A stretch of 64,000 nucleotides of DNA from Candidatus Buchananbacteria bacterium (GTDB lineage Bacteria > Patescibacteriota > Patescibacteriia > CAIXNZ01). Made by a program: the position numbers and the translations under genes. The stretch lies in contig WJKP01000014.1 of NCBI GenBank assembly GCA_014729025.1, positions 543-64,542 of the forward strand, written 5' to 3'. The notes under the pieces were generated by a model. The model saw only the letters and a list, made by a program, of their open reading frames with translations, made no database searches and was not told the DNA's origin. Each line of letters opens with the position of its first letter. The first letter of the stretch is position 1. Of this stretch, positions 8,726-41,812 are shown one piece after another.

Positions 8726-8729
8726 AAAT

Positions 8730-9908: not shown

Positions 9909-10065
9909 ATTTTTATTTCCTTTTCTTCCCTCCTAGGCTTAATTTTAATTATTATTAAATACTGTTGATATTTTATTTTGACATTACGAGTTATTTTATA
10001 TTATAATTAAAGCAGTATTACTTATTTTTATTATATAAAATCTAATTAATTTAAGCAAAAAAATT

Positions 10066-10620: not shown

Positions 10621-10650
10621 GCTATTTGCTTAATTAAATAATTTTCCGAA

Positions 10651-17781: not shown

Positions 17782-18324
17782 ATGCCTAAAATAAACTTTT
17801 CAAAACTTATTTTTGTTATATTTTTTTTATTTAATCTAATAATCATAAGTTGTTTAATTGCTCCTTTTGCCCTGGCAACTGAATTACAATTACAAATTCC
17901 CATTGGTGACCGACAAAGTTTTACAGTTTCTGGATCAACTATTGGAGAATATATACAGGCAATTATTGTGTTTGCTTCAGGGGCAATTATTTCATTAGCT
18001 ATTGTTATGATTATAGTTGGCGGTATCCAATGGATAATTTCCGGTGGTGTGCCTAATAAAATTAGCAATGCTAAAAATACGATTTTAAAAGCTTTTTTAG
18101 GTATGTTTATTGCTATTTTTGCTGTTTTCATCTTAGAAACAATTAATCCGAATTTAGTACAATTTAAATCATTAAGTCCCAAAACTCAAGAAAAATTGCC
18201 TTGTTGTGAATATTCAGAATCTGGAAGTAAAGATAAATTGTATAATTTTATGTCCGAAGAAAAATGCCTTAATAAAAAACCTCCGGGAAAAATAGTTAAT
18301 AATTCACAATGTTTAAATAATTAA
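17782..18324 (+). CDS. Secreted two-helix hydrophobic protein with Cys-rich C-terminus; possible TrbC/VirB2-like pilin
   Basis: 180 aa; signal peptide ending ALA-TE, two hydrophobic helices separated by a short polar loop (VirB2/TrbC topology), C-terminal CCEYSES...C...C. Confidence 0.3.
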   Translation: MPKINFSKLIFVIFFLFNLIIISCLIAPFALATELQLQIPIGDRQSFTVSGSTIGEYIQAIIVFASGAIISLAIVMIIVGGIQWIISGGVPNKISNAKNTILKAFLGMFIAIFAVFILETINPNLVQFKSLSPKTQEKLPCCEYSESGSKDKLYNFMSEEKCLNKKPPGKIVNNSQCLNN

Positions 18325-25154: not shown

Positions 25155-27101
25155 TTAAATATCAATTTCTTCCACTCCACCGCCTGTTTTAGGCGGAGTT
25201 TTGGGTTGACTTTCAGCAGATTCAGCTACAGCACCGCCTGATTCTTCTTCAAATTCCCTTTTTGAAGCTTCAATCTCTAATAATTGTTTGGGGTCAGTCG
25301 TAATCAATTGATCTTCACTGTATGAAGCCACTATTTTAATTGCCGCATGCTTTCTACCGGCAAAAAAGATACCTTCACCAACACCACATTCCAAAAGTAA
25401 GTATTTCTCGCCTTCAGTCAATAAAAATACTTTTTGAATATTATCAATCGCTGCAGGTGATTGCTTTAATAGTAATTGCAAAGCTGAATTGGTTACAATT
25501 GCGCGGCCATAAGGACTGTTCAAAAAATCATTTACATCCTGGGTAATAGTAGTTACACCTAAATAATATTTTCTACATCTTTTTACTAAAGCATAAATAA
25601 ATTTTGCTGAATCTTCATGTGTCATTAACCACCAAGCTTCATCAATTACTAAAATTCTTTTCTTTACTTGAGAACGTACTACATTCCAAATATAAGTTAC
25701 GATCGTATATATAGCTATTGGCCTTAATTCATCTTCCAAATCTCTAACGCTAAAACAAACCAACTGATTTCTCATATCAACATTAGTCGGCTGATTAAAT
25801 AAGCCGGAAAAAGTCCCTTCAGTATATTTTCTTAAACGTAAACTCAAATCTTCAGCACCTTCCATGCCTTCCAAAATATTCTGCAAATCCTGCATAATTG
25901 GCGGTTCAATTTTTGCTAAATCAGCTTGTGGCGTAATATCTTTTGAAGCATAAGTTTCTATTAAAGCACGATCCAAAATTGAATCTTCTTCGGTTGTTAA
26001 ATCACCGAGCATTAAACGTAACAAACCTTTTAAAGAAATTACACTGCTTCTAATAATATCTTCTGCGCTGGCATCGCCAACTCCTCTTGGCAAATCAAAC
26101 GGATTAATTTTTTCTTTTGACGCCAAAGAAATATTAACATAAGTTCCGCCAACTGCTTCGGATAAATGCGCGTATTCTCTTTCGGGATCAATAATAATTA
26201 CATCTGTACCTAGCATCATACTTCTTAAAACTTCCAATTTTACGGCGTAACTTTTACCGGCGCCCGAGGTAGCAAAAACAACATAATTGGCATTTTGCAA
26301 TGAAAATCTTTCAAATATAATTAAACTGTTATTATGCCTGTTTACACCGTATAAAATCCCCTCATCAGAAGTTAATTCTGATGAAATAAACGGAAAAGAA
26401 GAAGCAACCGGTGAAGTATTCATGTTAAAAGAAATTAAAAGCTCGTCATTAGCTAACGGAATAGTTGAATTTAAACCTTGTTCTGCCTGATATAAAACTT
26501 TTTTAGTATAAATTAGTTTGCCACCAAAAATTGATTCTACTTCTGAAGTCAACTCGTCTAAATCTTCTTCATTGTTGGCATAAATAGTTGTATATAATGC
26601 AAACTGAAAAAATCTTTCTATCCCTTGGGTTAAATCATCTCTTAATTTTTCAATATCTCGTAAAGCTGTTTCCAAAATAGGATCACGTGGCGCGCCTTTT
26701 TCAATATCTGACATTAATTGAGCCTGTAAATTACCCACCCGTTTTTTTAATTGTTTTAAAATTATTTCTGCTTTTACAGGATAAAAAAACATAGAAACAT
26801 CTAAGGTCTTGCTTAAACTAATTATTGGTGTAAACCAGCCAATAGTTATATAACGAGGATAATTTAAGACAAAAATAGTTCTAACATAAGTATCACCCAA
26901 AATAACATAAGTTGGTTTAACCTTAAAAGCAGCCGGCGCAATTAAATCTTTAACACTGACTTGTCCTTTACGATAAACTTTTTCTTCTTCTAAGGTAATC
27001 TCTTCTGCCTTAACGGCTGCTTCTGCGGATTTTTTTTGCTGATTTTTTTCTTCCTCCCCAGAAGATTGATTTTTTTGAGGTGTTGGTACTTCTAAAGCCA
27101 T
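25155..27101 (-). CDS. virB4: VirB4-family T4SS ATPase (Gram-positive TcpF/Orf16/PrgJ-like), ATPase part
   Basis: 648 aa; IAPAAFKVKPTYVILGDTYVRTIFVLNYPRYITIGWFTPIIS block typical of Firmicutes VirB4 homologs, Walker A SGAGKSY, Walker B VIDEAWWLM, TITQDV motif. Confidence 0.8.
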   Translation of the reverse strand: MALEVPTPQKNQSSGEEEKNQQKKSAEAAVKAEEITLEEEKVYRKGQVSVKDLIAPAAFKVKPTYVILGDTYVRTIFVLNYPRYITIGWFTPIISLSKTLDVSMFFYPVKAEIILKQLKKRVGNLQAQLMSDIEKGAPRDPILETALRDIEKLRDDLTQGIERFFQFALYTTIYANNEEDLDELTSEVESIFGGKLIYTKKVLYQAEQGLNSTIPLANDELLISFNMNTSPVASSFPFISSELTSDEGILYGVNRHNNSLIIFERFSLQNANYVVFATSGAGKSYAVKLEVLRSMMLGTDVIIIDPEREYAHLSEAVGGTYVNISLASKEKINPFDLPRGVGDASAEDIIRSSVISLKGLLRLMLGDLTTEEDSILDRALIETYASKDITPQADLAKIEPPIMQDLQNILEGMEGAEDLSLRLRKYTEGTFSGLFNQPTNVDMRNQLVCFSVRDLEDELRPIAIYTIVTYIWNVVRSQVKKRILVIDEAWWLMTHEDSAKFIYALVKRCRKYYLGVTTITQDVNDFLNSPYGRAIVTNSALQLLLKQSPAAIDNIQKVFLLTEGEKYLLLECGVGEGIFFAGRKHAAIKIVASYSEDQLITTDPKQLLEIEASKREFEEESGGAVAESAESQPKTPPKTGGGVEEIDI

Positions 27102-27112
27102 ATTTTATAAAA

Positions 27113-27766
27113 TTATTGTTCTATACGAAGTTTATTAATATCGCGTAATTTTTGATTTTGGCTGGTTCTTGGATTATAAACATTATAATATAATTCAATC
27201 AGACTCTGAGTATCTAAAACAGCGGTTTCTAAACCCATGCCTCTTAAATTTGACTGAATATTATTGATTCTTAAGCGCAAATCCTCTTTATATTCTAAAA
27301 ATTTTTCTCTCTTAATTTTTATCAATTTACCAGGTGTAAATAATTCTTTTAATCTTGTCCAAAAACTTTTGGATTTATCACCTAAAGGATCATAAGGGAT
27401 TACAATAAAAAAGCTTTTAGTCATGATTTCGCCTATTTCAATTAATTCTTGGATATATTCTATATAACTGTTTATTTGTACTTTTAATAGGTCGTTAGTC
27501 TGTTTTTTTCTCGCTTCATTTAATCTTCTTAAATAACCTTCAATATCTAATTGCCTAGACTGAATAACTATTTGCATAGGATGATCTAATGAATTTAAAA
27601 ACTGCATATAACCGCTGATTAAAGCTTTTTGTTCATCTTCTGATTTTAATGCGAAATTAATACTGGAACATAAAATAACTGAACGTAAAGTACCGTCTTT
27701 TAAAATAACCACTCCTTCTCTGATTTCGGCAATATCCAAGTGTTTTTGGGTTGTATTTTTTGCCAT
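27113..27766 (-). CDS. VirB4 N-terminal (CagE/TrbE/VirB-type) domain encoded as a separate ORF
   Basis: 217 aa; ILKDGTLRSVILCSSINFALKSEDEQKALISGYMQFLNSLDHPMQIVIQS resembles the conserved N-terminal block of VirB4 proteins; 11-nt gap and different frame to the ATPase ORF. Confidence 0.5.
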   Translation of the reverse strand: MAKNTTQKHLDIAEIREGVVILKDGTLRSVILCSSINFALKSEDEQKALISGYMQFLNSLDHPMQIVIQSRQLDIEGYLRRLNEARKKQTNDLLKVQINSYIEYIQELIEIGEIMTKSFFIVIPYDPLGDKSKSFWTRLKELFTPGKLIKIKREKFLEYKEDLRLRINNIQSNLRGMGLETAVLDTQSLIELYYNVYNPRTSQNQKLRDINKLRIEQ

Positions 27767-27774
27767 AAATAAAA

Positions 27775-28206
27775 TTATTTAATTATTTCTTCTTCCCTAA
27801 AAGCACCGCCTGTATTAACAACCAAAGATAAAGAAGATAATTTATCACCGACCAAAGGTTCTTTGGGCGTAAATTTTTCTTCCTCTTTTTTTTCTTCTTT
27901 TTTGGGCAATTCAGTTATTTCTGTTTTACCCCATAGTCTTAAATTAGGTCTTTTTAAGGTCTGAACTAAATTTAAAAAGAAATAATGAAAAGGCATACCA
28001 TTGACTTTAAAAAAAGCTATCATGCCAAAAATTGCGGTTGTTAATAAAGCAACAATTATAAAAGTAGTAAAATAAAACATTTTATAAAAAATAAAATCCA
28101 ACATACCGGCCACCATCATAATAAAAAATTGCCGAGTCGTAATTGGACCAATAATTTTACTTTCAACATCAATAAATTGTGGTACTAAAAATTGATCAAA
28201 AGCCAT
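27775..28206 (-). CDS. Small 2-TM membrane protein, VirB3-like by position and topology
   Basis: 143 aa; two adjacent TM helices, charged C-terminus; sits just upstream of the VirB4 ORFs as VirB3 does. Confidence 0.35.
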   Translation of the reverse strand: MAFDQFLVPQFIDVESKIIGPITTRQFFIMMVAGMLDFIFYKMFYFTTFIIVALLTTAIFGMIAFFKVNGMPFHYFFLNLVQTLKRPNLRLWGKTEITELPKKEEKKEEEKFTPKEPLVGDKLSSLSLVVNTGGAFREEEIIK

Positions 28207-28209
28207 AAA

Positions 28210-29760
28210 TTAATATTTTAAATTTTTATTTAATTCCATTATTGATTTAAATTCTAATAATTCTAATTCATCTGTCTCTTCAATCACTTGTTCAAAAGAT
28301 TTACCTTGATTAATTGCCTTATTCATTATATCGGCATAAATTTTATAAAGCGGGCTTTTCTTCAAAGCTTTAATCCCCTCAACTTTTTTAACTAATGATT
28401 CATCTTCCAATAAATTAAGTTTTTCTTTTAATTTAGAAGTTGCTTCCTGGGGATCTTTGGATAAACGCCGAAAATCAGCGATTGTAAAAGACGCTAATTC
28501 TTCAATCGGACCGTATAACCTTGGGGTAAATTTAACATCTTCTACTTTTGGCCGGCCACCTTGTTTTTCTTGTTTTTTAAAAATCGGCTGCTGAGAAACT
28601 TGTTTGTCTGCTGGTGGCGTTTGCGATTCAGCTGGAGCTTGACTTGTTACCTCATTTTTTTTAATTGATTCTTTTTTTGCTACAGTAACTTGAGATTGTT
28701 TATCCTGCGCTATTCCTTTTTTAGCTTTTACTGAAGTAGGTGTATCTTGAATTGAGTTTGGTGCAAAATCAAAATCAGCAAACGGATCTTTTTCTTTAGC
28801 CGACAAATTGACGTTTTTTTCTATACCTGGCTCTTTTTTTTCTTCTTTAGCCGAATCTGACTGAGCTGCCATAGGCGGTGGCGGAGCTAACTCTTCATTT
28901 GTCTCTAAAAAATCTTCTTTATCTTCTATTTTATCAGCTAAATCCGCAGATTCTTCTTTTTTTTCAATAAACTCTTCTTTTTCTTTTAATTCCCGTTTAA
29001 TTGCTTCTTTATGAGCCAATTCTTCAAACTCGACGCCTTGATCTTTTAACAATTGATCAATAGTCACTTCTTCCCCGGTAGTTTTTTCAGGCTTTGTCTC
29101 CGGCTTAACTGGTTTTGATTCAACATCTATATTAGTTTCCTGTACAACATCGGATTTAGGCATAACAAATTCTTCTGGCAAACTTTTTTCATATTCGGCA
29201 ATAACTTCATTAATATCAACATCTTCTTTTTCCATTTCTTCTTTTTTAACTTCTAATAAATCCCGTAATTTATAAAAACTTTCTTCAGGCATACCAACTC
29301 CCCCAATTTTGTCTGAACGGGTCATTACTTCTTTTAATTCAGCAAAATCACGAACATCCTTTAACCAACTAACCAAAGCTTCTAAAAATCTTTGTCTGAT
29401 ATTATCATTTTTAATTTTAAATTCCGGCAACTTGGCTAATAATTCATCGGTCATTATTGGCGGACTGAATTTATTTGCAGTTTTATCTTGTAAATTTTTT
29501 TTGATCGGTTCTAATTTTTCTTGTTTATCAAGTATTGAGGTTTTTAAATCATACGCCAAATCACCGGCTTTATTAAAATCAAGCTCTAATTTATCGCTAA
29601 ATAATTCAATTAAATCAAGTGGTTGCACCTTACCTAAAATAGCGTCAATTAAAATCTCCAATACTTTATCTTTATTTTCTAATTCATAATCTTGTAGAAT
29701 TTTTTTTAAATCATTGCTCAAATCACCGAAATCTTCTATTTTAAATTTATTGTCAGTCAT
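28210..29760 (-). CDS. Hypothetical acidic soluble protein (Glu/Lys-rich, coiled-coil-prone)
   Basis: 516 aa; no TM, no recognisable motifs; 3-nt gap to the next gene. Confidence 0.4.
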   Translation of the reverse strand: MTDNKFKIEDFGDLSNDLKKILQDYELENKDKVLEILIDAILGKVQPLDLIELFSDKLELDFNKAGDLAYDLKTSILDKQEKLEPIKKNLQDKTANKFSPPIMTDELLAKLPEFKIKNDNIRQRFLEALVSWLKDVRDFAELKEVMTRSDKIGGVGMPEESFYKLRDLLEVKKEEMEKEDVDINEVIAEYEKSLPEEFVMPKSDVVQETNIDVESKPVKPETKPEKTTGEEVTIDQLLKDQGVEFEELAHKEAIKRELKEKEEFIEKKEESADLADKIEDKEDFLETNEELAPPPPMAAQSDSAKEEKKEPGIEKNVNLSAKEKDPFADFDFAPNSIQDTPTSVKAKKGIAQDKQSQVTVAKKESIKKNEVTSQAPAESQTPPADKQVSQQPIFKKQEKQGGRPKVEDVKFTPRLYGPIEELASFTIADFRRLSKDPQEATSKLKEKLNLLEDESLVKKVEGIKALKKSPLYKIYADIMNKAINQGKSFEQVIEETDELELLEFKSIMELNKNLKY

Positions 29761-29774
29761 AAAATATATTAATT

Positions 29775-32700
29775 TTAAGGAGTAGAGCCTTTTTTCTTTT
29801 CGCTTACCTTATAACCAATTTTTTTCATTTTACTTTTGAATTTCGCTAATTCACCATTAAAAGCTTTTGAATTAGGAGCTGTTTGTAAAGCTGATATTAA
29901 ATTATTAAATTCCTGTTCTACTAAATTGGGATCGATACTGTCTTCATTGAGAGCACCTCCTGTTATTTCATCTTTCAAATGCTTAATAAGTCCGTCTACT
30001 TTAAATTGCATTCTACTTGGATCTTTATTACCTTTTTCAAACTGCTCTTGAATTGAATCAGCATAATTACGCATTTTAACTGAAGCTGATTTCTTTAATT
30101 CTTCTGTATCTCTATGTCTATCTTTAATTTTTGATTCATTCTCAATTAATACTTCGGCTGTTTTGGTCGCATTAGAACCTTTCAATCCTGTATTATCGGA
30201 AATTTGCTTAGCTATAACTTTTATACGCTCCTGCTTATCTTGCTCCTCCTCAGTTGCTTCTAACATCTCAAAAGCTTCGTCGTCAATATATTTTACAGCT
30301 TGTTGCTTTGCAGTTGCTGAAGCGGCTGGTGGCATAACATTTTTCACATTATCTTCAATAACAGCTCGTGCGCCTTCTTTTTTTCTAATTTTATTAATTT
30401 TTTGGGCAATATTTTTATTTTTCGTACCCTCTTTTTGAACACGACCGTCATCATCATATTCGGCACTGACCGCTTTATATAATTTTTGGTGTCTTTCTAA
30501 TTCTGGGGCTGACAGATTAGCTGTTTGATCATCCATTTTTTTATAATATTTTTCGATCCTGGCTTCCCATTGGCTATCAGTTTCTGATAGACCTGTTGTC
30601 GGATCAATTCTGCGATGTAAGCTTTGATCAAAATGTTGTTTATTGTTTTCAATAATTTCTCTTCGCTCAGCATTATTTTGCGCAAAACGCATTTCTTCTT
30701 TAACTTTAACATTGGCACGCGAAGGATCATCCCAGCCTGAAACACTGGCTACTTTATAAGTCAAGCCGTCCATCTCTGCACCTGCAAAATCTGGAGATTC
30801 ACTTGGATCACCAAAATCTTTTTGCTTGGCTATCTTATTAGCTTGATCATCACTCACACTGGCCGTGCCTTCACGAACTTCTTTCCTTTTACTTTGTAAA
30901 ACATCACCCAATCTGGCCACATTATAAAAATCAGAACCAATATCAGTACCACTGCTTACCAAATTTTGTAAAGCTTCTTGTTTGTCTTGAGATAAATCCT
31001 TAAAAGCCTTTGAGCTTGTATCAAGTTTATAAGTACCGTCGTTATTTTTTTCAGTAATACTTTTCATTTCAACATCACTTAAATCGACTGCGTTACCACT
31101 ATTATCTACGGCATTACGCATAGAAGCCTCGCCTCTTTGTTCTAAGTCACTTAAATCTTCATATTCATTAGTTTCTTCATTATAAACCAATGAAGAAAAA
31201 GCTTTTTTCCTACCAGTTGATTTTTCCACTCGGTCTTCCATGTCTTCTAAAAATAATTGTTTTTCTAATTTATCCTTATCCTTAAAAAAACCTGCTTGTT
31301 GTAGCTGTTTAACTTCTTTATTGGTTAATTTACCATTATCAGCCAACGTCTGAGCATAAAATTCCATGGCTTCTTTATTTTTACTTACTGCATCTAAATC
31401 CTTAACATTACCGTCTTCATCTATATTAGTTTCACCCCCTAAAATTTCTTTTTTAAATTGTTTTTTAACTTCTGCGGCATTTTTTTTATTGATATCCGTC
31501 CTTGTTTCACCATAAGCTTCAGCATGCTTAGCATCAGTCTCTCTTTTTGTTGCACTACCTACAATCGGTTTTTTTATTGCTGCTTGTAATTTTTCCATTC
31601 CTCTAGCCCTTCCTGCCTTAGTTAAATATTTACCCACACGAGACCGTTCTAATCTTTGAGCTCCGGCTTCTCTAGTAGCACCTACTAAAGGCTTGGCTGC
31701 TCTACCAGCCCATCTAGCTGGGGCTGTTACGGCTCTGGCTGATCGTCTAGCACCTCTTTCCAGTGTATTTTGGGCGGTATTTTTCATTTTATCTGCGGCT
31801 CGGCCAGCCATTCCAGAACCAGCTACGGCAAATTCTTGAGAAAATTTTAAACCACCCACTAACATAAGAATCCCCATCATAATAGAAATCATATTATCCA
31901 TGCTACCGGCTTTACTATTAAGAATCTGCTGGCCTTGTCGTTTCCCAAAATCATATTGATCACTTGGTACCATTTGATCATGATTAAGATTAACCATGGT
32001 TAAAAGTGCTAGCCAAAGAAAAAAAGCCATAAAAGGACCGATCATACAATAATTGAAAAATTGCCCCCACCATTTACTGGCCAAAGAACCGACAGTACCA
32101 CCTTGTCCTTGAAAAACCCAAGCAAAAAAAGCTAATGGAGAAAAAACAACCAAAGCCCATAAAGCAACTATTCTAAAAGCCAAAATTATACAAAAAATTA
32201 ATAAAACAATCAAAGTAACTACAGTATAAATTAAACCTAAAATAGATGCAGCTATCATGGTTAGTCCTTCATTCCAATCTATTTTATCTTCTAAAGCACC
32301 AATGGGATCCTCAGCTATTCGAAACCAATCGGTCATGGCTAAACCTTTAAAAATATTACCGGCCGAAATATCCTTATAAGCATTAACAAAAGTTATCATT
32401 AAAACTTGGAAAAAATCTATAATTAAACCGCAAATAGTCTTGCTAAAATTTACCAAAATTGCCATAATCAATAGCCTGGCCAAAAGCTTATTCCATTGAT
32501 ATTTTTCAATTTTTAAAACAGTCACAAAAGCAATAAAAAGTAAGCCTAAAATAAAAAACATGTTAACCAAGTCACGCAAAATTACCCAGCCTTCATTAAC
32601 ATAGGGATTATCAATAAACCGATTATACATACTTATCCATACAATAACTTCCATCAGCAATATAACCAATTCCCCACAGAGCTGTGTCAAAACACCAATC

Positions 32701-32987
32701 AAAAAAACAAGACCACGAATAATAACAGTCCAAGCATTAGTAACGATCGATTTGCCTAATTCAGCAGCACCCTCTTTGACTTTAGCCTTAGCAGCGGATT
32801 GACCGGCACCCAAAAGTGCTTGGCCTATTGTAACGGCCGCTTGGATTTGAGCGTTGGCTTCTTTTATTTCTGATTTAAAATTAAATTCATTATCAATATC
32901 AATACTAATATTAAAAAATGTTAATAAAAAAAGAAAAAATAAAGGTATTATGATTATGTTTTTATGTTTTTTAAAAAAATTCAACAT
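29775..32987 (-). CDS. VirB6/TrbL-like polytopic membrane protein with about 650-aa charged C-terminal extension
   Basis: 1070 aa; signal/TM plus about 8-10 TM helices in the first 400 aa, then a long hydrophilic K/E-rich tail, as in extended VirB6 proteins. Confidence 0.5.
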   Translation of the reverse strand: MLNFFKKHKNIIIIPLFFLFLLTFFNISIDIDNEFNFKSEIKEANAQIQAAVTIGQALLGAGQSAAKAKVKEGAAELGKSIVTNAWTVIIRGLVFLIGVLTQLCGELVILLMEVIVWISMYNRFIDNPYVNEGWVILRDLVNMFFILGLLFIAFVTVLKIEKYQWNKLLARLLIMAILVNFSKTICGLIIDFFQVLMITFVNAYKDISAGNIFKGLAMTDWFRIAEDPIGALEDKIDWNEGLTMIAASILGLIYTVVTLIVLLIFCIILAFRIVALWALVVFSPLAFFAWVFQGQGGTVGSLASKWWGQFFNYCMIGPFMAFFLWLALLTMVNLNHDQMVPSDQYDFGKRQGQQILNSKAGSMDNMISIMMGILMLVGGLKFSQEFAVAGSGMAGRAADKMKNTAQNTLERGARRSARAVTAPARWAGRAAKPLVGATREAGAQRLERSRVGKYLTKAGRARGMEKLQAAIKKPIVGSATKRETDAKHAEAYGETRTDINKKNAAEVKKQFKKEILGGETNIDEDGNVKDLDAVSKNKEAMEFYAQTLADNGKLTNKEVKQLQQAGFFKDKDKLEKQLFLEDMEDRVEKSTGRKKAFSSLVYNEETNEYEDLSDLEQRGEASMRNAVDNSGNAVDLSDVEMKSITEKNNDGTYKLDTSSKAFKDLSQDKQEALQNLVSSGTDIGSDFYNVARLGDVLQSKRKEVREGTASVSDDQANKIAKQKDFGDPSESPDFAGAEMDGLTYKVASVSGWDDPSRANVKVKEEMRFAQNNAERREIIENNKQHFDQSLHRRIDPTTGLSETDSQWEARIEKYYKKMDDQTANLSAPELERHQKLYKAVSAEYDDDGRVQKEGTKNKNIAQKINKIRKKEGARAVIEDNVKNVMPPAASATAKQQAVKYIDDEAFEMLEATEEEQDKQERIKVIAKQISDNTGLKGSNATKTAEVLIENESKIKDRHRDTEELKKSASVKMRNYADSIQEQFEKGNKDPSRMQFKVDGLIKHLKDEITGGALNEDSIDPNLVEQEFNNLISALQTAPNSKAFNGELAKFKSKMKKIGYKVSEKKKGSTP

Positions 32988-32995
32988 AAGTTATT

Positions 32996-35900
32996 TTATT
33001 GGTAATCTTCTAAATTAATTAAAAATGGATAAAAAGTTATACAGGCATAAGGCTGATAATTATTATTCGTATCATATAAATCATTAAAAATGCCGTTATA
33101 AACCGGATTTAAAGTATCAAATTCCAAACACATACCTTCCAACCCATTAACCTCTGTCATGGTCTCTATTTCTGATGTATCCTCACAATCAGGATCTGGT
33201 AATGCTCCTTTTAATGTCTCTGGGGCATAACAAAGATTATTATTGGTTGGCTCATCAGGAAAATAGGTTGTAACTCCGCCGGCTTTAACTTCATAATAAT
33301 TGCACATATTACCCAAGGTATCTGGACTGGTTGACGGACTATAAGTATTTAAAATATTTTTATATTCTTGCTGTTGAGATAATTGAAAGGGCAAGGGTGA
33401 ACTTTTTTCCGGGAATATTTTGCAAATCGGTTCGGTATAGCGTTCATCATCTAAATTGCCTAACTCATTAACAACAGGGTATTGGTCAAATTGTTTATTT
33501 AATTCAGCTTCAATTGGGAATCTTTCCGGAATAGTATACCCTGAATAATCACCAGCTCGCCATTGAGTCAGCCTGGTTAATTCTCCAGCGCCAAAACGAT
33601 AAATATAACCGCTTTTACTTTCATAATCACTTATCCGCTTTACAACAATGGGATCAGAATCTAGATTATAACGCACATTATCTTTTTTAGGTGAAAATTT
33701 GGTACATTCACCGGCAAACTCTTCACGGCATAAATCAATTTCAGTACAAAAACCATTACTATCTTTTTCAGCACAAATTGCCCATTCAGCGCAATTGCGA
33801 TCTTTTTTAACTTTTAAAATCTCATTGGTATTATTAAAAGTATTTAAAAATTCAACACAGCCTTGATTCCAATCAACATTGGTACAAGCTGAACGATTAA
33901 TATCATTACCAGCATCTATTACAAAATAACTGTCTTCTGTATTATCTTTTATCTCTATTTGATCATAAAGAATATAAGAACTTGGACAATTTCCTTCATC
34001 AGTCCTTACATTTTCATTACGCGGCGCATAAATAATCACTTCATAATTTTGCAAATCGTCATATTCAATCCAATCATTAACTGGCTGATTATTTTCATCA
34101 ACAACTGATTCACAGTCAAGTTTGCTTGTAAAATTAGGATCTGAACATTCACCATGAGGAACCGTAAATAAAATCTCTACTTTTTTCCAGTCAGTTTCCG
34201 CCTCATAATTATAAGCTAAACCTGGTTCAGTATTGTTTTGATCAATATAACGATTAATCGCAATTGTCGCTTCAGGCAAAGGACAATCATCACCTTTACC
34301 TTGAGCGTCAGCCGGTACTTTATAATAAAAACTGGCTTTATAAGTTTTACCTTTTTCCAAAAAGGCTACTTTTTGTTTAATGCCAAAACTTGGCACCACA
34401 TCTTCATCCAATTCACAATCAGGATTATCACGAATATAAGTGCTTGGACAATCTTGCGTAGTATTTTTTATTAATTTAACGGCTTTTGAACCCGATTTAA
34501 CATCATCAGTTTCTATTTGTTGATTGCCGGCATCGGCTGCTATAGTTGTCCAACTTGAAAGGCGACCATCTGGATTAAATTCAAAGCTACCATTAGCTAC
34601 ATAATTAGGATTAATATCAACAAATTCATTGCAACCATCCCAGCGGTCATCACATTCACCGACATAACCTTTATATTTATTGGCTTCAAAAACTTTATAA
34701 ATAGTAAAAGGTGTAGCCAAACATTGCCCGCTATCAAGCCATTCGCCGTTTCCTAAAACACAAGATTCCTGATCATTGATATCATTTAAAATAACTGTAC
34801 ATTGATCATAATCAAGACTCCAGCCACCACCATTGGCTTCACACTCTTCTGGAGTATTATAAGCCAAAGAACCGCAACCCAAAGTTTGACTGCCTTTTTT
34901 AAACCAACCTTTAACGTTTTGGTTATTAACGATTTTTTCACCGTATTGACATAATTTAGTCGGTTCAATTTTATAATATTCAGGACTTCCCAATTCATTG
35001 ACTAATTCAGTGCAACCTAAACCTTGGTGACTGCACATAGTTGCTTGAGGTACATTAATATATCGGTCCGGATTATTTTTTAAATATATATCTTCAAAAC
35101 CGGTATTTTGCAAACCTTCAAAAATCGGTCGGCCAAATCTTTGACAACCTTTATTATTAGACGAGCACCGATAATTATCATCTAAAACCAATGTGATTAA
35201 TTCATCGCTTGGGACCTGATAATCATCCAAATAAGTCGTATTATCATTATTAAAATTCTGCTGATTAGGATTGATTGAATTTTGAGTATCCATTAAAACT
35301 TGACAGCCAACCGCACTTTCACGGCATAAATTAGTAAAAGATTTTAAATTATGCCTTTGCCCTAATGAATCATCATAAGCTTGGCAGCCTAACATGGGAT
35401 GGGGATCATTAGGGTCTTTGACGCCAAAAATATTTCTATCACAGCTATCCGGAGTAAACCAGCTATTTTTGAGCACATAAACATTATCGCGAATAACCCT
35501 AAGGGCAATATTATCCAAATAAATCGGTGTATCTATTTCAGTAAAAACTAATCGATTATCAGTTACATCTGACCAGCTAACCAAAACCGGTCCCAGATTA
35601 TAATTTTGCCATTCATCAGTCAATGTAATTTGATTATCAACTGAAGCAAATTCTTCTAAAGTTGTCTGATCTTCATCTGCTGTAGCAGTACTAAATCTTA
35701 TACTTATATCTTCACTTTGACCGGCTGATTTAGCCCAAAATGATAAAGTATAAAGATTACCTTGCTGAATATCAACCTGTTTATTAATACTATTAAATTC
35801 TGAGGGCACAAATAATGAATGGCCACCGACTTGAACTGACTCACCAACCATAGTTAAGCCACTACCTTGCTCAGACAAACCACTATACCAATCCAATTGA

Positions 35901-38900
35901 CCCTGCTCAAAATTGTCAAAAACTTGCATATAAACATTATTCCCCTGATTGCCAATAAAAGCCCGGCAACCATTAGCCTCAGCCCGGCAACTAATACCTT
36001 CGCTAGGAATAGCGTCATAAAGACAAGCATTTATATCACCTTGCCAGCGACCATTAGTAACCAAACAATTTTCTTCTGTTGATTCTGTTTTTCTATAAGG
36101 ATGGCAATCCTCGGATACAGAAATAGTTTTTCTAATATCACGATAATATTCATTGCCTTGATTATCAAAAAAATTAATACAATTAAAATCATTTTCTCCA
36201 ATCGTCAAACGACAATCACCTTCACCATCAATTATTTTTGGGGCGCCGGTCTGCTCATCTTGCTGAAATTCATATCTGACCAATTGCGGCGGGCCGCTAG
36301 ACGAACCTTGCCAACTAAAAAATGTTTTCTCCCCTAAATCAAGGTCAGGCCTAATACATTGTCTTAAATAAGTAAAATATTCTATACCTTCACCGCCTTG
36401 AGCAACTTCGTCTAAATTAGTAAATTGAGCACAACCAACTTCAGCGTAACTACATTGAGTTGCGGTTTCTGGAATAAAATAATGATAAAGCGGATCAGGC
36501 TCTGGTTCATATAAAGCTGCTTCCTGCTTATAAGTATCATAACCAACACATTCCGCGGGGCAATAATCAGTCGCACTAACTACGCCCGGTATATCAGGCC
36601 CGCCAGCTAATGGCGTATAAAGTTGACAGCCAGCTTCCTCTGCTAGACATATTTTGGAAAAATTATCACAAGCATCAGCGTCAGGTGCGTATTGATAACA
36701 ATCAATACTGTCTTTATATATTAATTCTTCATCCCAATAACCATTATTAGCTTGACAATTTTGTTTGGTTAATGGAGAAATATCTAAAACTGGAGCAGGA
36801 TCACCTTCGCCATACCCCTGACAATTTAAACGTTCTGGTGGCTTTTTATAATAAACTTTGCTGTTTAATTCATAATCCTGATACTGAGAAATAAAATTAT
36901 AATTTCTGACCTGTTCAATAGTATTAAGCGACAAATCAAGACCATCAACATAAACCGTGGCACCTGTCTGGCCGCCAGGTAAATTTAACCAAACATCCAG
37001 CTGCGTACCAGCATTAGTAGTAATTAAAGTACTATCAACTTGTGAATAAAATTCCGTGGCATAAATTTCATTACTATTAATTTCCTGATCACCGCCTAAA
37101 TAAGTTTTTACAAGATTAAAACCAATCGGTTGATTTAAGCTTTGATTGGCTGCAATATAAGCTGTTGCCGTATAAACATCACCGCCTTTGGTTAATATTT
37201 TATTATTATCATTAAAACTACTAGTATAGACTAATTGCAATTCTTCATTATCACCTAAATTACTGATATCTATTTCTAGTCGGCTCAACCCGCTATAAAC
37301 ATTAGAACCTTCTTTAGAAACCTGAGCCAAATCACTAAACGGGCCGTATCCGCGCCATTCACCTAAAAAATCATCACATTGATTTTTATTTTGCGGATTA
37401 TTAACTCGGTCATCAGAACCATACAAAGCAGCTCCCTGACAGAATTCTGACCAACTGGCATTATCATTGGCTAAACAATCTGCTTCCGATTGTAATTCGG
37501 GTTCATTTTTAACAACACCTTCAATTTGGCATTGCTCTACCCAAGCACCGCCATGGTTTAAACATTTATCTTCGGCGCTAACACCACCCTCATCAGTAAA
37601 TTGCGGGTTTGCGCATAAATTATATTTTAAAACACTATAAATACACGTTCTTTGATAATTACCGCCAGAGGCCAAACAATCGGTTTCATCAACATCCCTA
37701 TTAACTGCTACCTGACAAACATTAATCCAATTGGCTCCAGCTGCCAAACAATCTGCTTCTGTTTGACTTACCCCATCATTACAAATACTTTCCCAAGTCC
37801 CACCATTATTCAAACAAGTTACTTGATCAGCATAATTATAATCCAAACATATTTCATTATATCTACCATCCAATGATTCGCATTCACCCTCACCAGTAAC
37901 TCTGGCTTTTAATCTTAAATCCCAATTTTGGGGAAAATAACCTTGCTGAGTGTATTCAAAACTAGAATCAGTTACTAAATTATTATTAGGCTCACGATAT
38001 AAGAAAAATTCATTACAGCCCTCTTGATTCCGATCACAAATTTCCGCATAACGATTTAAATAAATTCTTTCAGATGCGCAACCTTGACCTTCTACCCAAG
38101 TCCCGTCAATGGCTGGGTCTGTACAAGTTGAATCATCAAATTCAGAAAAATCTTTCCATAATCCAGCTACGGTTTTAGTTGCATACCAAATACAACCGGC
38201 ATTATAATCACCGCAAGTATCACTACCGCTTAAAGTATTTTTTAAATAAGAAACTGACCGAGTACCTTGAGCATCAGTCAATGTATAGGTCCGACAACTA
38301 TTAAATTCTTCCGGGCAAGAGTCAGCTGTAAACTGCCAACTATTTTCTTCTTTAACACAAATGCCATAATCTTCATCAACACAACCACCTCGATCATCTT
38401 CTTTTAAACAGCTAGCAAAATCAGGACAGCTTGAATATCGCTGACCGGTTGAATTCGTAACCAATAACTCGTTATAAGGCTCCAGATCTGTTTTTAAAGC
38501 GCATTTGGTAGCTGGTAATTTTAAAACCCAATTAGGATCAACTAAATTACAAAACGGCGATTCATCAATATCAAAATCACCGCAACGACCTGAACCAGCT
38601 TTATAAAAACCATTAACTACATCGGCTAAAGTCGCATTAACAACTTGATTTAATTTTTGTTGATTATAAGCTTTGATTTCATCTAAATCTTCTGCGCCAA
38701 ACCCGGCATACGGTTTAAAAATACAATTCCTTAATTTTTGAGTTTTATAAGGTTCAACATCAAATAAATTGTAACCATAACGTGAACAATCAGTCCCAGC
38801 GTCACAAATGTCTTGGAATTCATCATAATCGATTTCTTGCCTATAATTACAATCTCTAATTAATTCAGCTGCCAATTCTAAGCCTAAGGGCACTACTCTG

Positions 38901-40909
38901 GCTTTTCTTAATTTTTTAATATTAGCTAAATGATAAGTACCCGGTTCAGTTTCTTCTCCCCAAGAAAATTTATAATCACCGATTAATTTTCTTTGCTCCA
39001 TTGCCTGCGTAATTGTTAATTCATCATTAATTGCTAAAGCAAAATTAGGGTCTATAACATTATTATAAATATTAGGATTAACCTCCCCTTCAAGGTTTAA
39101 CTGAAATTCTGATAATAAATCCACATCTTTATAAGAATAATTGACCTGATATTGTTTAGCCAATCTTTCCACATAACTCCTTACTCCTTCACCAGTAATT
39201 ACTTCTTGCTCAAATGGATTATAAATATCAAGAAACGGTGCTGGTTCAAAACCAGGTTGTTCCAATTCGCTAGCGGTTTTTTTTAATTTTTTATAAGATT
39301 CTGTTTCCTGTTCCCCGCTATATAATGCTTGTAATAATCTTTGGGTCAATTCGTTCCAAAGTGTTTCCAAAAATACGCCTAAAGCATCAGCAGCAATGTT
39401 TTTTGTATAATAACTGGCTGTTTTTTTACCGGCCACAATATCTTCTTCGGCTTTTTTTCGTATAATATTAGACGGTGTCCTAATAGTATCACCGATTCTA
39501 TCGGTTATTGATTTCCAGCCATTATTAACTGTTGCCTGCAAATGACGATTTAAAGCTTCATTTAAACCGATTGTTGCCATTTCCCTAGATAAAGTCTCAT
39601 AAGCATTAAATTCATTGGCTTCAGGACTAAATAAATCTTTAGCTAAAGCAAAATTATAAGCTGCACTGCCTTCAAAAAAATCAGGGTTAAGTTGTTCACG
39701 AACCTGAGTTCTTAAAAATTCAAAACCACTTTTTAATGAATTAGTCAAATTAATAACATAATTAACTTTAGTAGTATAATCATTTCTAAATGCTCTTTCT
39801 AATTGCTCACCCAATTCTGGGCCAACCCGCGCAGAAGTCGGGGGTGGAGTAACATTTAAATCATTTAAAATTACTTCGCATCTGCCCGGCCGATTAGCCA
39901 ATTCAGCCGGACCTTTGTTTTTACAAAAATTATAAGTATCTTGAATTTGATCAATTTTTTCTATTTGCGGATTAATTTTATTAACCCAAGCTTCTCTAAT
40001 TAATGGAATATTTTCCGGTACTATCCGATAACTGCCAATACCTTGACTTAATTGGGCTTCAGTATCAGATAAAGCATAATTAAGCATTATACTAACATCA
40101 TTTTCCATTTCTTGGGTATTTCTTTTTAAATTATCAGCACTCTCTTTTAAAGCTCTTTGAATACTGTTTTCCGGACAAATAACATTTAAACCTTCATTTA
40201 ATACTGAACAATCAACACTATAACCATTTAACCTAAAATCCCAAATTTGCAAAGTTTGGTCTTGAGTTAAAACTGTTGTCATTAATTCAGTATTTTCTTG
40301 AAATTGTCCGCCAGCGCCAATCCCAAAATCAGCAGAAATAAAATCTTCTAAATTTCTTTGGCCTATCTCTTCCCAGTGGCTTCTTAATTCTGTCCAGGAA
40401 CAATCAGGTTGATAGCCTTGCCATTCCGGAAAGGACGGAATATTTATAGCTAAATCAATTGCAATACTGGGATCAAGAGTACAAACATTAATACCAGTCA
40501 CATCTTGTATTACTGTCTGCACAAAATCACCAATCGCTGCATCGGCATAGCCGGAAACAAACCCCTCAAGATCAGTAATAAATTGAGGTCCCTCACCTTG
40601 ACCGCCACTAGCCACCCAAACCGCTGTTTGCTGCGCCATTAAATTAGCTAAATTCCCCAAAACATTTTTAAAAAAAACCGCTTTAATTTCGTCCCAAATT
40701 TTAGACAGCAATCTGTCAGTTGATTCTTCTGTCTGATAAATCGTATCTATTGCTGTTTTATTTGGCACTGATCCCATTTCAATAACCGGTAAAGGTACTG
40801 GTTGGGCATTAACCTTTGATACATCTACATAAAAATTAGTTAAAATAAAAATTAAAGCAATAATACCAATTATAACTTTTTTAAATTTTGTTAAATTAGG
40901 CTTTAGCAT
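32996..40909 (-). CDS. Giant (2637 aa) secreted/anchored cysteine-rich surface protein with CBM4/9-like (NGSFE...W) beta-sandwich modules and tandem Cys motifs
   Basis: N-terminal signal/TM; Cys-poor first ~700 aa then highly Cys-rich; tandem DCLxxGGxWxxxC repeats (about nt 37430-37880); three segments starting like CBM_4_9 domains (SSFEYTQQGYFPQNW, DNFEQGQLDW, NGSFEFNPDGRLSSW). Confidence 0.6.
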   Translation of the reverse strand: MLKPNLTKFKKVIIGIIALIFILTNFYVDVSKVNAQPVPLPVIEMGSVPNKTAIDTIYQTEESTDRLLSKIWDEIKAVFFKNVLGNLANLMAQQTAVWVASGGQGEGPQFITDLEGFVSGYADAAIGDFVQTVIQDVTGINVCTLDPSIAIDLAINIPSFPEWQGYQPDCSWTELRSHWEEIGQRNLEDFISADFGIGAGGQFQENTELMTTVLTQDQTLQIWDFRLNGYSVDCSVLNEGLNVICPENSIQRALKESADNLKRNTQEMENDVSIMLNYALSDTEAQLSQGIGSYRIVPENIPLIREAWVNKINPQIEKIDQIQDTYNFCKNKGPAELANRPGRCEVILNDLNVTPPPTSARVGPELGEQLERAFRNDYTTKVNYVINLTNSLKSGFEFLRTQVREQLNPDFFEGSAAYNFALAKDLFSPEANEFNAYETLSREMATIGLNEALNRHLQATVNNGWKSITDRIGDTIRTPSNIIRKKAEEDIVAGKKTASYYTKNIAADALGVFLETLWNELTQRLLQALYSGEQETESYKKLKKTASELEQPGFEPAPFLDIYNPFEQEVITGEGVRSYVERLAKQYQVNYSYKDVDLLSEFQLNLEGEVNPNIYNNVIDPNFALAINDELTITQAMEQRKLIGDYKFSWGEETEPGTYHLANIKKLRKARVVPLGLELAAELIRDCNYRQEIDYDEFQDICDAGTDCSRYGYNLFDVEPYKTQKLRNCIFKPYAGFGAEDLDEIKAYNQQKLNQVVNATLADVVNGFYKAGSGRCGDFDIDESPFCNLVDPNWVLKLPATKCALKTDLEPYNELLVTNSTGQRYSSCPDFASCLKEDDRGGCVDEDYGICVKEENSWQFTADSCPEEFNSCRTYTLTDAQGTRSVSYLKNTLSGSDTCGDYNAGCIWYATKTVAGLWKDFSEFDDSTCTDPAIDGTWVEGQGCASERIYLNRYAEICDRNQEGCNEFFLYREPNNNLVTDSSFEYTQQGYFPQNWDLRLKARVTGEGECESLDGRYNEICLDYNYADQVTCLNNGGTWESICNDGVSQTEADCLAAGANWINVCQVAVNRDVDETDCLASGGNYQRTCIYSVLKYNLCANPQFTDEGGVSAEDKCLNHGGAWVEQCQIEGVVKNEPELQSEADCLANDNASWSEFCQGAALYGSDDRVNNPQNKNQCDDFLGEWRGYGPFSDLAQVSKEGSNVYSGLSRLEIDISNLGDNEELQLVYTSSFNDNNKILTKGGDVYTATAYIAANQSLNQPIGFNLVKTYLGGDQEINSNEIYATEFYSQVDSTLITTNAGTQLDVWLNLPGGQTGATVYVDGLDLSLNTIEQVRNYNFISQYQDYELNSKVYYKKPPERLNCQGYGEGDPAPVLDISPLTKQNCQANNGYWDEELIYKDSIDCYQYAPDADACDNFSKICLAEEAGCQLYTPLAGGPDIPGVVSATDYCPAECVGYDTYKQEAALYEPEPDPLYHYFIPETATQCSYAEVGCAQFTNLDEVAQGGEGIEYFTYLRQCIRPDLDLGEKTFFSWQGSSSGPPQLVRYEFQQDEQTGAPKIIDGEGDCRLTIGENDFNCINFFDNQGNEYYRDIRKTISVSEDCHPYRKTESTEENCLVTNGRWQGDINACLYDAIPSEGISCRAEANGCRAFIGNQGNNVYMQVFDNFEQGQLDWYSGLSEQGSGLTMVGESVQVGGHSLFVPSEFNSINKQVDIQQGNLYTLSFWAKSAGQSEDISIRFSTATADEDQTTLEEFASVDNQITLTDEWQNYNLGPVLVSWSDVTDNRLVFTEIDTPIYLDNIALRVIRDNVYVLKNSWFTPDSCDRNIFGVKDPNDPHPMLGCQAYDDSLGQRHNLKSFTNLCRESAVGCQVLMDTQNSINPNQQNFNNDNTTYLDDYQVPSDELITLVLDDNYRCSSNNKGCQRFGRPIFEGLQNTGFEDIYLKNNPDRYINVPQATMCSHQGLGCTELVNELGSPEYYKIEPTKLCQYGEKIVNNQNVKGWFKKGSQTLGCGSLAYNTPEECEANGGGWSLDYDQCTVILNDINDQESCVLGNGEWLDSGQCLATPFTIYKVFEANKYKGYVGECDDRWDGCNEFVDINPNYVANGSFEFNPDGRLSSWTTIAADAGNQQIETDDVKSGSKAVKLIKNTTQDCPSTYIRDNPDCELDEDVVPSFGIKQKVAFLEKGKTYKASFYYKVPADAQGKGDDCPLPEATIAINRYIDQNNTEPGLAYNYEAETDWKKVEILFTVPHGECSDPNFTSKLDCESVVDENNQPVNDWIEYDDLQNYEVIIYAPRNENVRTDEGNCPSSYILYDQIEIKDNTEDSYFVIDAGNDINRSACTNVDWNQGCVEFLNTFNNTNEILKVKKDRNCAEWAICAEKDSNGFCTEIDLCREEFAGECTKFSPKKDNVRYNLDSDPIVVKRISDYESKSGYIYRFGAGELTRLTQWRAGDYSGYTIPERFPIEAELNKQFDQYPVVNELGNLDDERYTEPICKIFPEKSSPLPFQLSQQQEYKNILNTYSPSTSPDTLGNMCNYYEVKAGGVTTYFPDEPTNNNLCYAPETLKGALPDPDCEDTSEIETMTEVNGLEGMCLEFDTLNPVYNGIFNDLYDTNNNYQPYACITFYPFLINLEDYQ

Positions 40910-40948: not shown

Positions 40949-41812
40949 TTAAGTAGCGTTCAAAGTCTCTAAAAATAACTGCTTCAATGTTTCATCATCA
41001 ATCTGCTCTAATAAACTTTTATCTATACCTCTTTGTTCTAATTCTTGACGAATTTCATCCGGTGATAACTCTTTTAATTCTTCTTTAATGGGTTCTTTTT
41101 CTTCTGAACTTAATTGCTCTGCTTCTTGAGCTTGTAATTCTCTAGCCTGATCAAGCATTTCTTGTAACTGAGGATCATTAAGCCCTAATTCCTCTAAAGT
41201 AATTTCTCCAGATAATAATTGGGTTTGTAATTCTAATAAATCCGAATCTAAAACTGCTGAATCTGATGAACCTAATTCGTCCATTTGATTTGTATTAGCA
41301 AAATTCTCTTGCTCTTGCTCATAAAATTGTTCATTTTCCATATCTGTTGGTGCTTCATCTGTTATTTGCGGCCCATAACATTCTTCTCCTTCGGGACAAG
41401 CCGGATCAGTACCTTGAACAATTTCTTCCTTATCCAAAAGACCATCACCATCAGTATCTTCTAAATAAGCACTGGTTTTATAAAGATAAATTTCACTATA
41501 ATCACTTAATCCATCCAAATCACTATCTTGTTTTTGCAATTTAGCAGTTTCCTCTTCTGTTGTTGCTTCATTTGTATTTGCAACTTGATATTGTTGCCTT
41601 AATTCGCCTCGTTTTTCTCTTAAATAACTGGAATATAAGGGCTCTTCAATATTTTTTTTAAACTGTAAATAACCTAAAACTGCGGCAGAAATTGTAATTA
41701 ATACCAAAAAAAATACGAAAAATTTCTCCATTGGAGTTTTTTCTATTTTATTCGTGATTTTTTCGCTTTTTTGTTCAAAAAAATTTTTAATTCTTTCTTT
41801 TTCTTCTGGCAT
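40949..41812 (-). CDS. Membrane-anchored acidic protein with thrombospondin-type-3-like Ca-binding motif; first gene of the operon
   Basis: 287 aa; N-terminal TM; DSDLDGLSDYSE...DTDGDGLLDKEE (DxDxDG) repeats; acidic coiled-coil tail. Confidence 0.4.
   Translation of the reverse strand: MPEEKERIKNFFEQKSEKITNKIEKTPMEKFFVFFLVLITISAAVLGYLQFKKNIEEPLYSSYLREKRGELRQQYQVANTNEATTEEETAKLQKQDSDLDGLSDYSEIYLYKTSAYLEDTDGDGLLDKEEIVQGTDPACPEGEECYGPQITDEAPTDMENEQFYEQEQENFANTNQMDELGSSDSAVLDSDLLELQTQLLSGEITLEELGLNDPQLQEMLDQARELQAQEAEQLSSEEKEPIKEELKELSPDEIRQELEQRGIDKSLLEQIDDETLKQLFLETLNAT

Follow-up and report, generated by a model that had tools for sequence, protein, structure and literature searches.

A large part of bacterial diversity belongs to the Patescibacteria, which live attached to other microbes; in the one species of them that is genetically tractable, growth on the host requires the T4SS (type IV secretion system). 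In the T4SS of the Enterococcus plasmid pCF10, which belongs to the mating-pair formation type FATA (MPF-FATA), the gene of the Sec-exported adhesin PrgB lies upstream of the channel genes in the same operon, and the lectin-like beta-sandwich of this protein binds a cell-wall polymer of the partner. In the F-type T4SS, mating pairs are stabilised by TraN, a Sec-exported, Cys-rich adhesin whose folding needs periplasmic oxidoreductases (the helpers TraF, TrbB and DsbC) and which recognises the surface of the partner and sets specificity. The subject of the present analysis is a gene found beside T4SS genes in a 64,000-nucleotide (nt) stretch of a Candidatus Buchananbacteria genome (contig WJKP01000014.1, positions 543 to 64,542; hereafter the window), whose product of 2637 amino acids (aa), hereafter the giant, was rated from its sequence as a putative T4SS-associated surface adhesin, with an architecture and a family that are both new. 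A dedicated survey of 2025 noted that the T4SS of monoderms depend on adhesins at the surface, and it detected none such as PrgB in the T4SS loci of Patescibacteria (PMC12102498). In Southlakia, the T4SS and several polysaccharide-binding envelope proteins were essential for epibiotic growth (PMC10633639). No earlier description of the giant's family was found in full-text literature searches, and the available part of the supplementary files of PMC12102498 mentions neither CBM_4_9 nor TSP3.

The giant is the best candidate so far for the host-gripping part. The reading favoured here, to which a probability of about 55% was given, is that it would be an extracellular, disulfide-locked multi-lectin adhesin, tethered by a partner protein and coupled to the T4SS, that grips a glycan of the host envelope. 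It starts from observations on the sequence anatomy, the fold of the carbohydrate-binding modules (CBM), the family size, the synteny, the purifying selection and the parity of the Cys number. In this reading, the giant would be a Sec-exported, acidic exoprotein stabilised by about 46 disulfides, probably made by a membrane-anchored DsbA encoded 15 kb away. A helical N-terminal region would be followed by a rigid chain, in which C-x6-C cystine-hairpin modules alternate with three lectin modules of the CBM4/9/22 type. Having no wall or membrane anchor of its own, the giant would probably be held at the surface by a Ca-binding, acidic, single-pass protein encoded upstream, and the two would head the MPF-FATA-like T4SS operon, of monoderm type, on the chromosome of ABY1- and Paceibacteria-type Patescibacteria. 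By binding a glycan polymer of the host envelope, the giant may hold the T4SS channel or the VirB2-like pilus of the epibiont against the host, while a repeat array in a loop of the first lectin module plausibly tunes host specificity. Both the tethering by the partner and the functional coupling to the T4SS are what we infer.

In function, the giant would correspond to adhesins that form mating pairs, such as PrgB (Gram-positive) or TraN (F-type). By homology and architecture, it is of neither the PrgB, the TraN nor the CagY kind, and the CBM_4_9 domain superfamily is the only one to which it belongs. The giant gene lies beside the channel genes of a monoderm T4SS, on the same strand and 8 nt before a VirB6-like gene, which lies downstream in 41 of 46 loci. 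PrgB and the giant share no sequence or profile similarity, the Ig-like domains included (Pfam and NCBIfam, with E-values (E) up to 1 for the whole protein and up to 5 for nine segments). Unlike PrgB, the giant has no LPXTG anchor, is twice the size and is Cys-rich, whereas PrgB is essentially Cys-free; it carries three CBM4/9-type modules, whereas PrgB has a GbpC-type adhesin domain and Ig-like domains; and its context is chromosomal and non-conjugative. The likeness to TraN is one of logic, with conserved Cys pairs, an even number of Cys and a DsbA gene beside a pilin gene on the side of the giant. Nevertheless, no match to the Pfam TraN family was obtained, and TraN is a diderm outer-membrane protein of ~600 aa that binds OmpA- or OmpK36-type porins or lipopolysaccharide, whereas the giant has 2637 aa, belongs to a monoderm and bears lectin modules.

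CBM4, CBM9 and CBM22 are known as modules appended to glycoside hydrolases, whereas the giant has no detectable catalytic domain; its CBMs are embedded in a cystine-rich scaffold, and one of them holds a 157-residue repeat insertion in a loop. The likeness to CagY of the Helicobacter pylori Cag T4SS is loose: CagY, too, is the largest protein of its locus, and its Cys-bearing tandem repeats vary by strain and modulate the interaction with the host (PMC10706595). However, CagY has a VirB10 C-terminal domain and spans both diderm membranes, whereas no VirB10 or CagY similarity was found in the giant, and the repeats of the giant are a small insertion rather than the bulk of the protein. Very large predicted surface adhesins of the same class, for which host contact was proposed, are the FhaB-domain exoproteins of Patescibacterium danicum (ABY1) (PMC11809585). 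These proteins have 4939-6025 aa, FhaB/COG3210 beta-helix repeats and no full-length homologs in other Patescibacteria, and they were not reported beside a T4SS (PMC11809585); in contrast, hundreds of species share the giant's family, which lacks an FhaB domain and keeps synteny with the T4SS.

The gene is real, intact and under purifying selection. The initial annotation, a short reading of the window's letters that preceded this work, had described a single 7.9-kb open reading frame (ORF) of 2637 aa, and the ORF list, the translation and full-length homologs bear this out: the ORF is uninterrupted, starts with ATG and exceeds every other ORF of the window in length. Thirteen homologs of 2591-2781 aa cover 87-100% of the giant's length, Met1 is invariant among the aligned homologs, and comparison with the closest ortholog for which DNA was available (from locus L007) gave a dN of 0.066 and a dS of 0.615 (dN/dS 0.107). 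The gene and the segments of its product, several of them modelled with AlphaFold2 (AF2) or searched with hidden Markov models (HMM), are located in the window as follows.

32996..40909, minus strand: giant gene, 2637 aa, intact (ORF list and translation, full-length homologs, dN/dS)
40805..40909, minus strand: predicted signal peptide, aa 1-35, with a KK n-region, a hydrophobic core and VNA before Q (hydropathy, invariant Ala35, -3/-1 rule)
38810..40804, minus strand: Cys-poor, mostly alpha-helical N-terminal region, aa 36-700
37970..38809, minus strand: Cys-rich module I, aa 701-980, conserved and bearing the C-x6-C hairpin motif three times, as C865/872, C899/906 and C958/965 (invariant Cys columns, motif count)
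36890..37969, minus strand: first CBM-like beta-sandwich, aa 981-1340, split after its first strand by an insertion (AF2, uninterrupted distant orthologs)
37430..37900, minus strand: six tandem [ED]-x-x-C-L-x-x-G-G-x-W-x-x-x-C units, aa 1004-1160, inserted in the first CBM-like module (regular expression, HMM, shuffles, leave-one-out, AF2)
35960..36889, minus strand: Cys-rich module II, aa 1341-1650, within the core that the family conserves most; a single dispersed DCL-GG-W-C unit lies at aa 1609 (BLASTP, invariant Cys)
35510..35959, minus strand: second CBM_4_9 module, aa 1651-1800
34610..35509, minus strand: Cys-rich module III, aa 1801-2100, in which the C-x6-C motif occurs four times and the DCL-GG-W-C unit twice (aa 2017 and 2044)
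33920..34609, minus strand: third CBM_4_9 module, aa 2101-2330, with Cys-containing loop insertions (Pfam PF02018, E 8e-8, 33.2 bits, isolated segment)
32999..33919, minus strand: conserved C-terminal Cys-containing domain, aa 2331-2637 (invariant C2342, C2351, C2373, C2379, C2388, C2394 and C2402)

The family to which the giant belongs is large. An exhaustive HMM search with a core profile (aa 1340-2100) retrieved, at an E of 1e-30 or better, representatives of at least 1186 clusters formed at 50% identity; the top 150 matches all exceeded 600 bits over the entire profile and were mostly 2000-3900 aa long; in BLASTP, distant homologs aligned to aa 1316-2098. Two short peptide patterns alone recovered relatives in at least 293 species-representative genomes. 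The homologs came from metagenome-assembled genomes (MAGs) of Patescibacteria, including Falkowbacteria, Buchananbacteria, Uhrbacteria, Komeilibacteria, Magasanikbacteria, Parcubacteria, Paceibacter and Nomurabacteria, and their source annotations read only 'hypothetical protein' or 'carbohydrate binding domain-containing protein'. It was also observed that many contigs with the giant locus (L007, L009, L011, L016 and about 30 more) are titled 'uncultured Gammaproteobacteria bacterium' in public records; because of their gene content (KsgA, giant, MPF-FATA-like T4SS) and low GC, these contigs appear to be mislabelled MAGs.

Export and disulfide bonding are suggested by the N-terminus and the Cys content, for which the first description of an N-terminal signal or anchor, a Cys-poor stretch of ~700 residues and a Cys-rich remainder agreed with what was found. 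The sole hydrophobic segment of the giant spans aa 6-28 and is followed by VNA and Q (hydropathy), with an Ala35 at position -1 that is invariant across a 22-sequence alignment, and a hydrophobic N-terminus was present in 132/138 full-length family members. The protein would thus be exported by Sec and its signal peptide cleaved, as the -3/-1 rule predicts. Seven Cys lie in aa 1-700 and 85 in aa 701-2637 (92 in total), so that Cys makes up 3.49% of the giant vs 0.86% of the window's 52 remaining ORFs (binomial p = 5e-28). More than 40 Cys are invariant in the 22-sequence alignment, in which identities go down to 27%, and the Cys number is even in 109 of the 138 full-length members (p = 2e-12), which is expected if all Cys are paired. 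The giant is also very acidic, with a net charge of -208, and a motif and hydropathy scan of its C-terminal part found neither an LPXTG-like wall-sorting motif nor a transmembrane (TM) helix or hydrophobic segment. Disulfides in the giant would be formed via the DsbA-like protein of the window, an oxidoreductase that had been pointed out at the start and that has a Thioredoxin_4/DSBA match and an N-terminal membrane anchor.

17077..17772, plus strand: membrane-anchored DsbA-like oxidoreductase (Pfam Thioredoxin_4 E 4e-26, DSBA E 5e-15; TM helix aa 17-35)
17782..18324, plus strand: VirB2-like T4SS pilin with 5 Cys, 10 nt behind the DsbA gene (Pfam PF18895 E 3e-7; three hydrophobic segments)

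This pair lies ~7 kb from the end of the T4SS operon, on the opposite strand, and the gene pairing suggests that the pilin, too, is a DsbA substrate.

Three segments of the giant begin like CBM beta-sandwiches, as the initial annotation had noticed: DSSFE..NW at aa 981, FDNFE..DW at ~aa 1666 and NGSFE..SW at aa 2106. With the whole giant as query, Pfam CBM_4_9 (gathering threshold 25.9 bits) was matched with 40.6 bits (E 4e-10) in two stretches, which correspond to the second and third modules; in isolation, the second scored 24.0 bits, slightly under the cutoff. The window's own first segment, joined across the array, had no CBM match in Pfam. It is backed by AF2, which placed ~10 strands at aa 1184-1328 with a predicted local distance difference test (pLDDT) of 67-88, and by distant orthologs that carry an ordinary uninterrupted module at this position. 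One of these uninterrupted modules matched CBM_4_9 positions 2-134 of 136 with 25.5 bits, just below the threshold, although only 1/5 came near it. Profile matches of the lectin modules in the PDB were to CBM4 and CBM22, and the beta-sandwich (jelly-roll) fold of the CBM4/9/22 type was recovered. The residues F1667, W1674, Y1720, F1724-W1725 and Y1797-D1799, conserved in the family, are the structural core motifs of this fold. The CBM modules of the giant would presumably bind glycans.

Since CBMs usually accompany enzymes, it was considered whether the giant may be a secreted effector, a toxin or a polysaccharide-attacking enzyme, released by Sec or by a two-step T4SS route like that of pertussis toxin, with the CBMs targeting the host wall and an unrecognised catalytic or pore-forming domain at the N-terminus. 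A Sec-exported Ptx subunit as precedent was discussed for Saccharibacteria (PMC7427843), and the top full-length Foldseek matches of the giant were Cry protoxins and binary-toxin binding components with CBM-like domains. However, the matches to Cry1 protoxins and CDTb/iota-b, with poor TM-scores of 0.08-0.18, were rejected as homology, since shared CBM-like sandwiches and generic helix bundles explain them. Moreover, no catalytic, toxin, phage or known adhesin family was found in any segment (Pfam, NCBIfam, PHROGs), and the N-terminal profile had no match in a PDB sequence search. Once Sec has acted, a further secretion step is unnecessary in a monoderm cell, and the giant is encoded by one conserved single-copy gene per genome, which, unlike those of toxins, comes without immunity genes or polymorphic C-termini. 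This role was consequently regarded as very improbable. Among the other candidates, an NCBIfam match to the spike fibre of gene transfer agents was dismissed (E 0.004, 17.6 bits vs a cutoff of 36), and an origin from phage tail fibres was unsupported, as PHROGs gave no match.

The repeats had been stressed at first, when at least five tandem copies of the motif were described near nt 37430-37880. Six tandem units were found at nearly these coordinates (nt 37430-37900), and three further dispersed units begin at aa 1609, 2017 and 2044, which brings the number to nine. Internal-repeat detection recovered them: the repeat HMM reached a maximum of 2.9 bits across 300 shuffles of the giant, and 7/9 units were recovered in leave-one-out HMM searches with an independent E of 6e-4 or better. 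Nevertheless, the tandem array is missing (threshold 10 bits) from 134/164 family members and is restricted to the window's own clade, that is, to homologs of ~47% identity or more. The array was inserted directly behind strand 1 of the first CBM-like module, between ..FPQNWDLRLK and GPFSD.., and it received the best AF2 confidence in the giant (pLDDT 80-88), each unit being modelled as a 6-residue helix bearing the first Cys, followed by a strand of 6-8 residues bearing the Trp and the second Cys. It is also the most divergent stretch relative to the closest ortholog, with 43% aa difference and a dN/dS of 0.30, whereas the other 100-residue blocks differ by 3-19%, except for aa 1300-1399 (25%). 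By its sequence, the DCL-GG-W-C array is a clade-specific, fast-evolving insertion and not a hallmark of the family.

A second motif, C-x5-[GSND]-C followed by x2-[FYL], is present in ten copies in aa 865-2093, whereas shuffling gave an expectation of 2.1 +/- 1.4 copies and a maximum of 7 in 2000 shuffles. All its copies fall on Cys pairs that are invariant family-wide. The commonest spacings between consecutive Cys, 7 or 11 residues, are those of the two motifs.

The association with the T4SS is given by the gene order. On the minus strand, KsgA is followed by a 287-aa protein, the giant, a polytopic protein of 1070 aa, a charged one of 516 aa, PrgI/VirB3, a protein resembling TrsD, VirB4, a single-pass protein of 222 aa and ComF, and the genes around the giant are located as follows.

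40949..41812, minus strand: upstream partner, 287 aa, a membrane protein of the single-pass type whose ectodomain is acidic and which bears TSP3-type Ca-binding repeats (Pfam TSP3_bac E 6e-8; TM helix aa 31-49)
29775..32987, minus strand: polytopic, VirB6-like protein of 1070 aa whose C-terminal part is large and hydrophilic (7 hydrophobic segments within aa 1-330; begins 8 nt past the giant's stop)
28210..29760, minus strand: conserved 516-aa protein, Lys/Glu-rich, very highly charged and without TM helix (no family match; orthologs in 24 loci)
27775..28206, minus strand: PrgI/VirB3-like protein (Pfam PF12666, E 5e-9)
27113..27766, minus strand: TrsD-like protein, 217 aa, resembling the N-terminal part of VirB4 (NCBIfam TrsD E 6e-9; VirB4_plasma N-terminal region)
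25155..27101, minus strand: VirB4 ATPase (NCBIfam conju_CD1110 365 bits, cutoff 325; Pfam P-loop_TraG E 8e-28)

The intergenic gaps across this cluster are of 3-39 nt, except that ksgA and the partner gene lie 80 nt apart, and none of the gaps from KsgA to ComF holds a terminator-like site. From these short gaps on one strand without terminator-like sites we infer that the giant is co-transcribed with the T4SS genes; a promoter scan was uninformative at 32% GC (94 sites vs 86 expected). In the partner, a CPEGEEC Cys pair stands right behind two TSP3-type DxDxDG Ca-binding loops, and the long, acidic tail is probably a coiled coil. The window's 1070-aa protein itself had no Pfam match, and PDB sequence searches gave nothing useful for it; its VirB6-like label is justified because 7/35 of its orthologs match the Pfam family TrbL/VirB6 (best E 1e-6). 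This supports the initial claim that the giant gene stands directly upstream of a VirB6-like gene. The 516-aa charged protein could be a cytoplasmic T4SS accessory. The window, with a GC of ~32%, also holds PheST, RF-1, NrdD, a Clp ATPase, RecG, a RadA-like protein and KsgA, and since it carries these housekeeping genes, the locus is chromosomal and not a mobile element. The monoderm-type VirB4, PrgI/VirB3, TrsD, VirB6 and VirB2-like pilin, together with the comF, recG and radA-like neighbours, characterise it as MPF-FATA-like, and these neighbours match the published T4SS context of ABY1 (PMC12102498). As a side observation, the TrsD-like protein is separate from VirB4 in all relatives examined, a split that was reported for Patescibacteria (PMC12102498).

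Conservation of this order was assessed in 80 species-level loci with 10-kb flanks, counts being limited to loci with enough flank. An ortholog of the 287-aa partner lies immediately upstream of the giant in 65/65 loci, and the VirB6-like gene follows it in the 41/46 mentioned above, a positive outcome for co-occurrence with T4SS genes in relatives, which the initial annotation had named as a check. VirB4 was reached in 6/8 loci with at least 8 kb downstream; in the other two, an extra gene was inserted, so that VirB4 would fall beyond the flank. Identical gene order was found around homologs of 27-55% identity, among them those of 55%, 31% and 30%.

Several observations weigh against a host-gripping adhesin coupled to the T4SS. 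Sugar binding cannot be read from the sequence, because the conserved CBM residues are structural core motifs, and about half of the residues modelled by AF2 have a pLDDT below 50, the conserved Cys-rich linkers included, so that only the CBMs and the repeat array escape low confidence. In five loci (L046, L058, L059, L064 and L075), unrelated genes and no VirB6-like gene lie downstream, and the tightest linkage of the giant is with the small partner and KsgA, not with VirB4. No gene above 3.3 kb is present in the T4SS cluster of Southlakia (Saccharimonadia), which was validated by transposon sequencing (Tn-seq); the giant is therefore a lineage-specific accessory rather than a universal part of Patescibacteria T4SS, and since this essential cluster lacks it, a T4SS of this type can work without it. 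Finally, neither homology nor a specific fold match to VirB5, PrgB, TraN or another T4SS adhesin or component was found (Pfam, NCBIfam, PDB, PHROGs).

Part of these observations would equally suit a general glycan-binding adhesin of the envelope or surface layer that is independent of the T4SS, the gene order then reflecting conserved operon geography near the ksgA/origin region. The order KsgA-partner-giant is stricter (65/65) than that of the giant and the VirB6-like gene (41/46), the five loci with unrelated downstream genes and the Southlakia cluster without a giant fit such an adhesin, and T4SS loci of Patescibacteria have been described amid housekeeping genes, ksgA for example (PMC12102498). 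On the other hand, an adjacency of 89% that is kept at 27-30% identity and in at least two classes is hard to explain without selection, the gap to the VirB6-like gene in the window is 8 nt or less, and no other function-specific neighbour is conserved. For these reasons, independence from the T4SS was regarded as unlikely, though worth serious attention.

At the opposite end, the initial annotation had interpreted the giant as a structural part of the apparatus, such as a tip. Its linkage to the T4SS stood (41/46 loci), whereas a structural or tip role was left unsupported by the five loci without T4SS genes downstream, the Southlakia cluster and the lack of homology to T4SS components. A more precise form of this idea is that the giant is an integral part, either a pilus-tip 'barb' or an extracellular conduit or stalk that crosses the wall of the epibiont to reach the host, which would replace missing VirB5 or VirB7/9/10-type parts. 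Its gene heads the operon, immediately ahead of that of the VirB6-like protein; the gene of a VirB2-like pilin adjoins that of DsbA; and, lacking an anchor of its own, the giant must dock on something, for which the long helical N-terminal region of the model could serve. Cryo-electron tomography (cryo-ET) of another Patescibacterium revealed a 70-nm tube with a barb density at its tip (PMC11880426). However, no similarity of the giant to VirB5, CagL, CagY or PrgC was found, it is absent from the Saccharimonadia T4SS, which has pilins, and it is not next to T4SS genes in 11% of loci, which together make an integral role improbable.

The favoured reading of a tethered, T4SS-coupled lectin adhesin can be carried further, at the cost of becoming a long shot. 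In this bolder form, the giant and its Ca-binding partner would be the missing extracellular half of the ABY1/Paceibacteria T4SS, a rigid lectin stalk, locked by disulfides, by which the channel or pilus is docked on a specific wall glycan of the host, with the hypervariable Cys-repeat insertion as a host-range determinant. [quoted passage not shown] Independently of this, a conserved, single-copy, lectin-bearing family that heads a T4SS operon in two major classes is a concrete and testable candidate for host recognition, and a defined gene pair, the giant and its small partner, is now available for study. The CBM modules are units for expression and screening, and for the fast-evolving insertion, a correlation with host range could be sought. 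Protein family databases also gain two cystine motifs not yet catalogued and a multi-domain architecture that is new.

Some minor observations concern individual loci and other genes of the window. In L058, a 1009-aa protein with 6.7% Cys and a signal-like N-terminus (8289-11318, plus strand) is encoded in place of the VirB6-like gene and may be another Cys-rich exoprotein. In L001, a Pacebacteria contig with the homolog P0018 (19868-20530 and the contig end), what comes after the giant is not T4SS genes but two small ORFs of lipoprotein-like kind and, where the contig ends, a Transposase_mut/MULE gene, which may reflect a rearranged locus or an assembly break at an insertion sequence (IS) element. 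Within the window, a 205-aa ORF (55930-56547, minus strand, viewed together with 54186-54662 and 56569-57150) matches Pfam Bac_rhodopsin with E 2.7e-23, being somewhat shorter than the profile; its neighbours encode a TspO/MBR protein and a flavodoxin-like reductase of flavin mononucleotide (FMN), with MsrA and MsrB nearby, and its product would be a microbial rhodopsin in an ABY1-type Patescibacterium.

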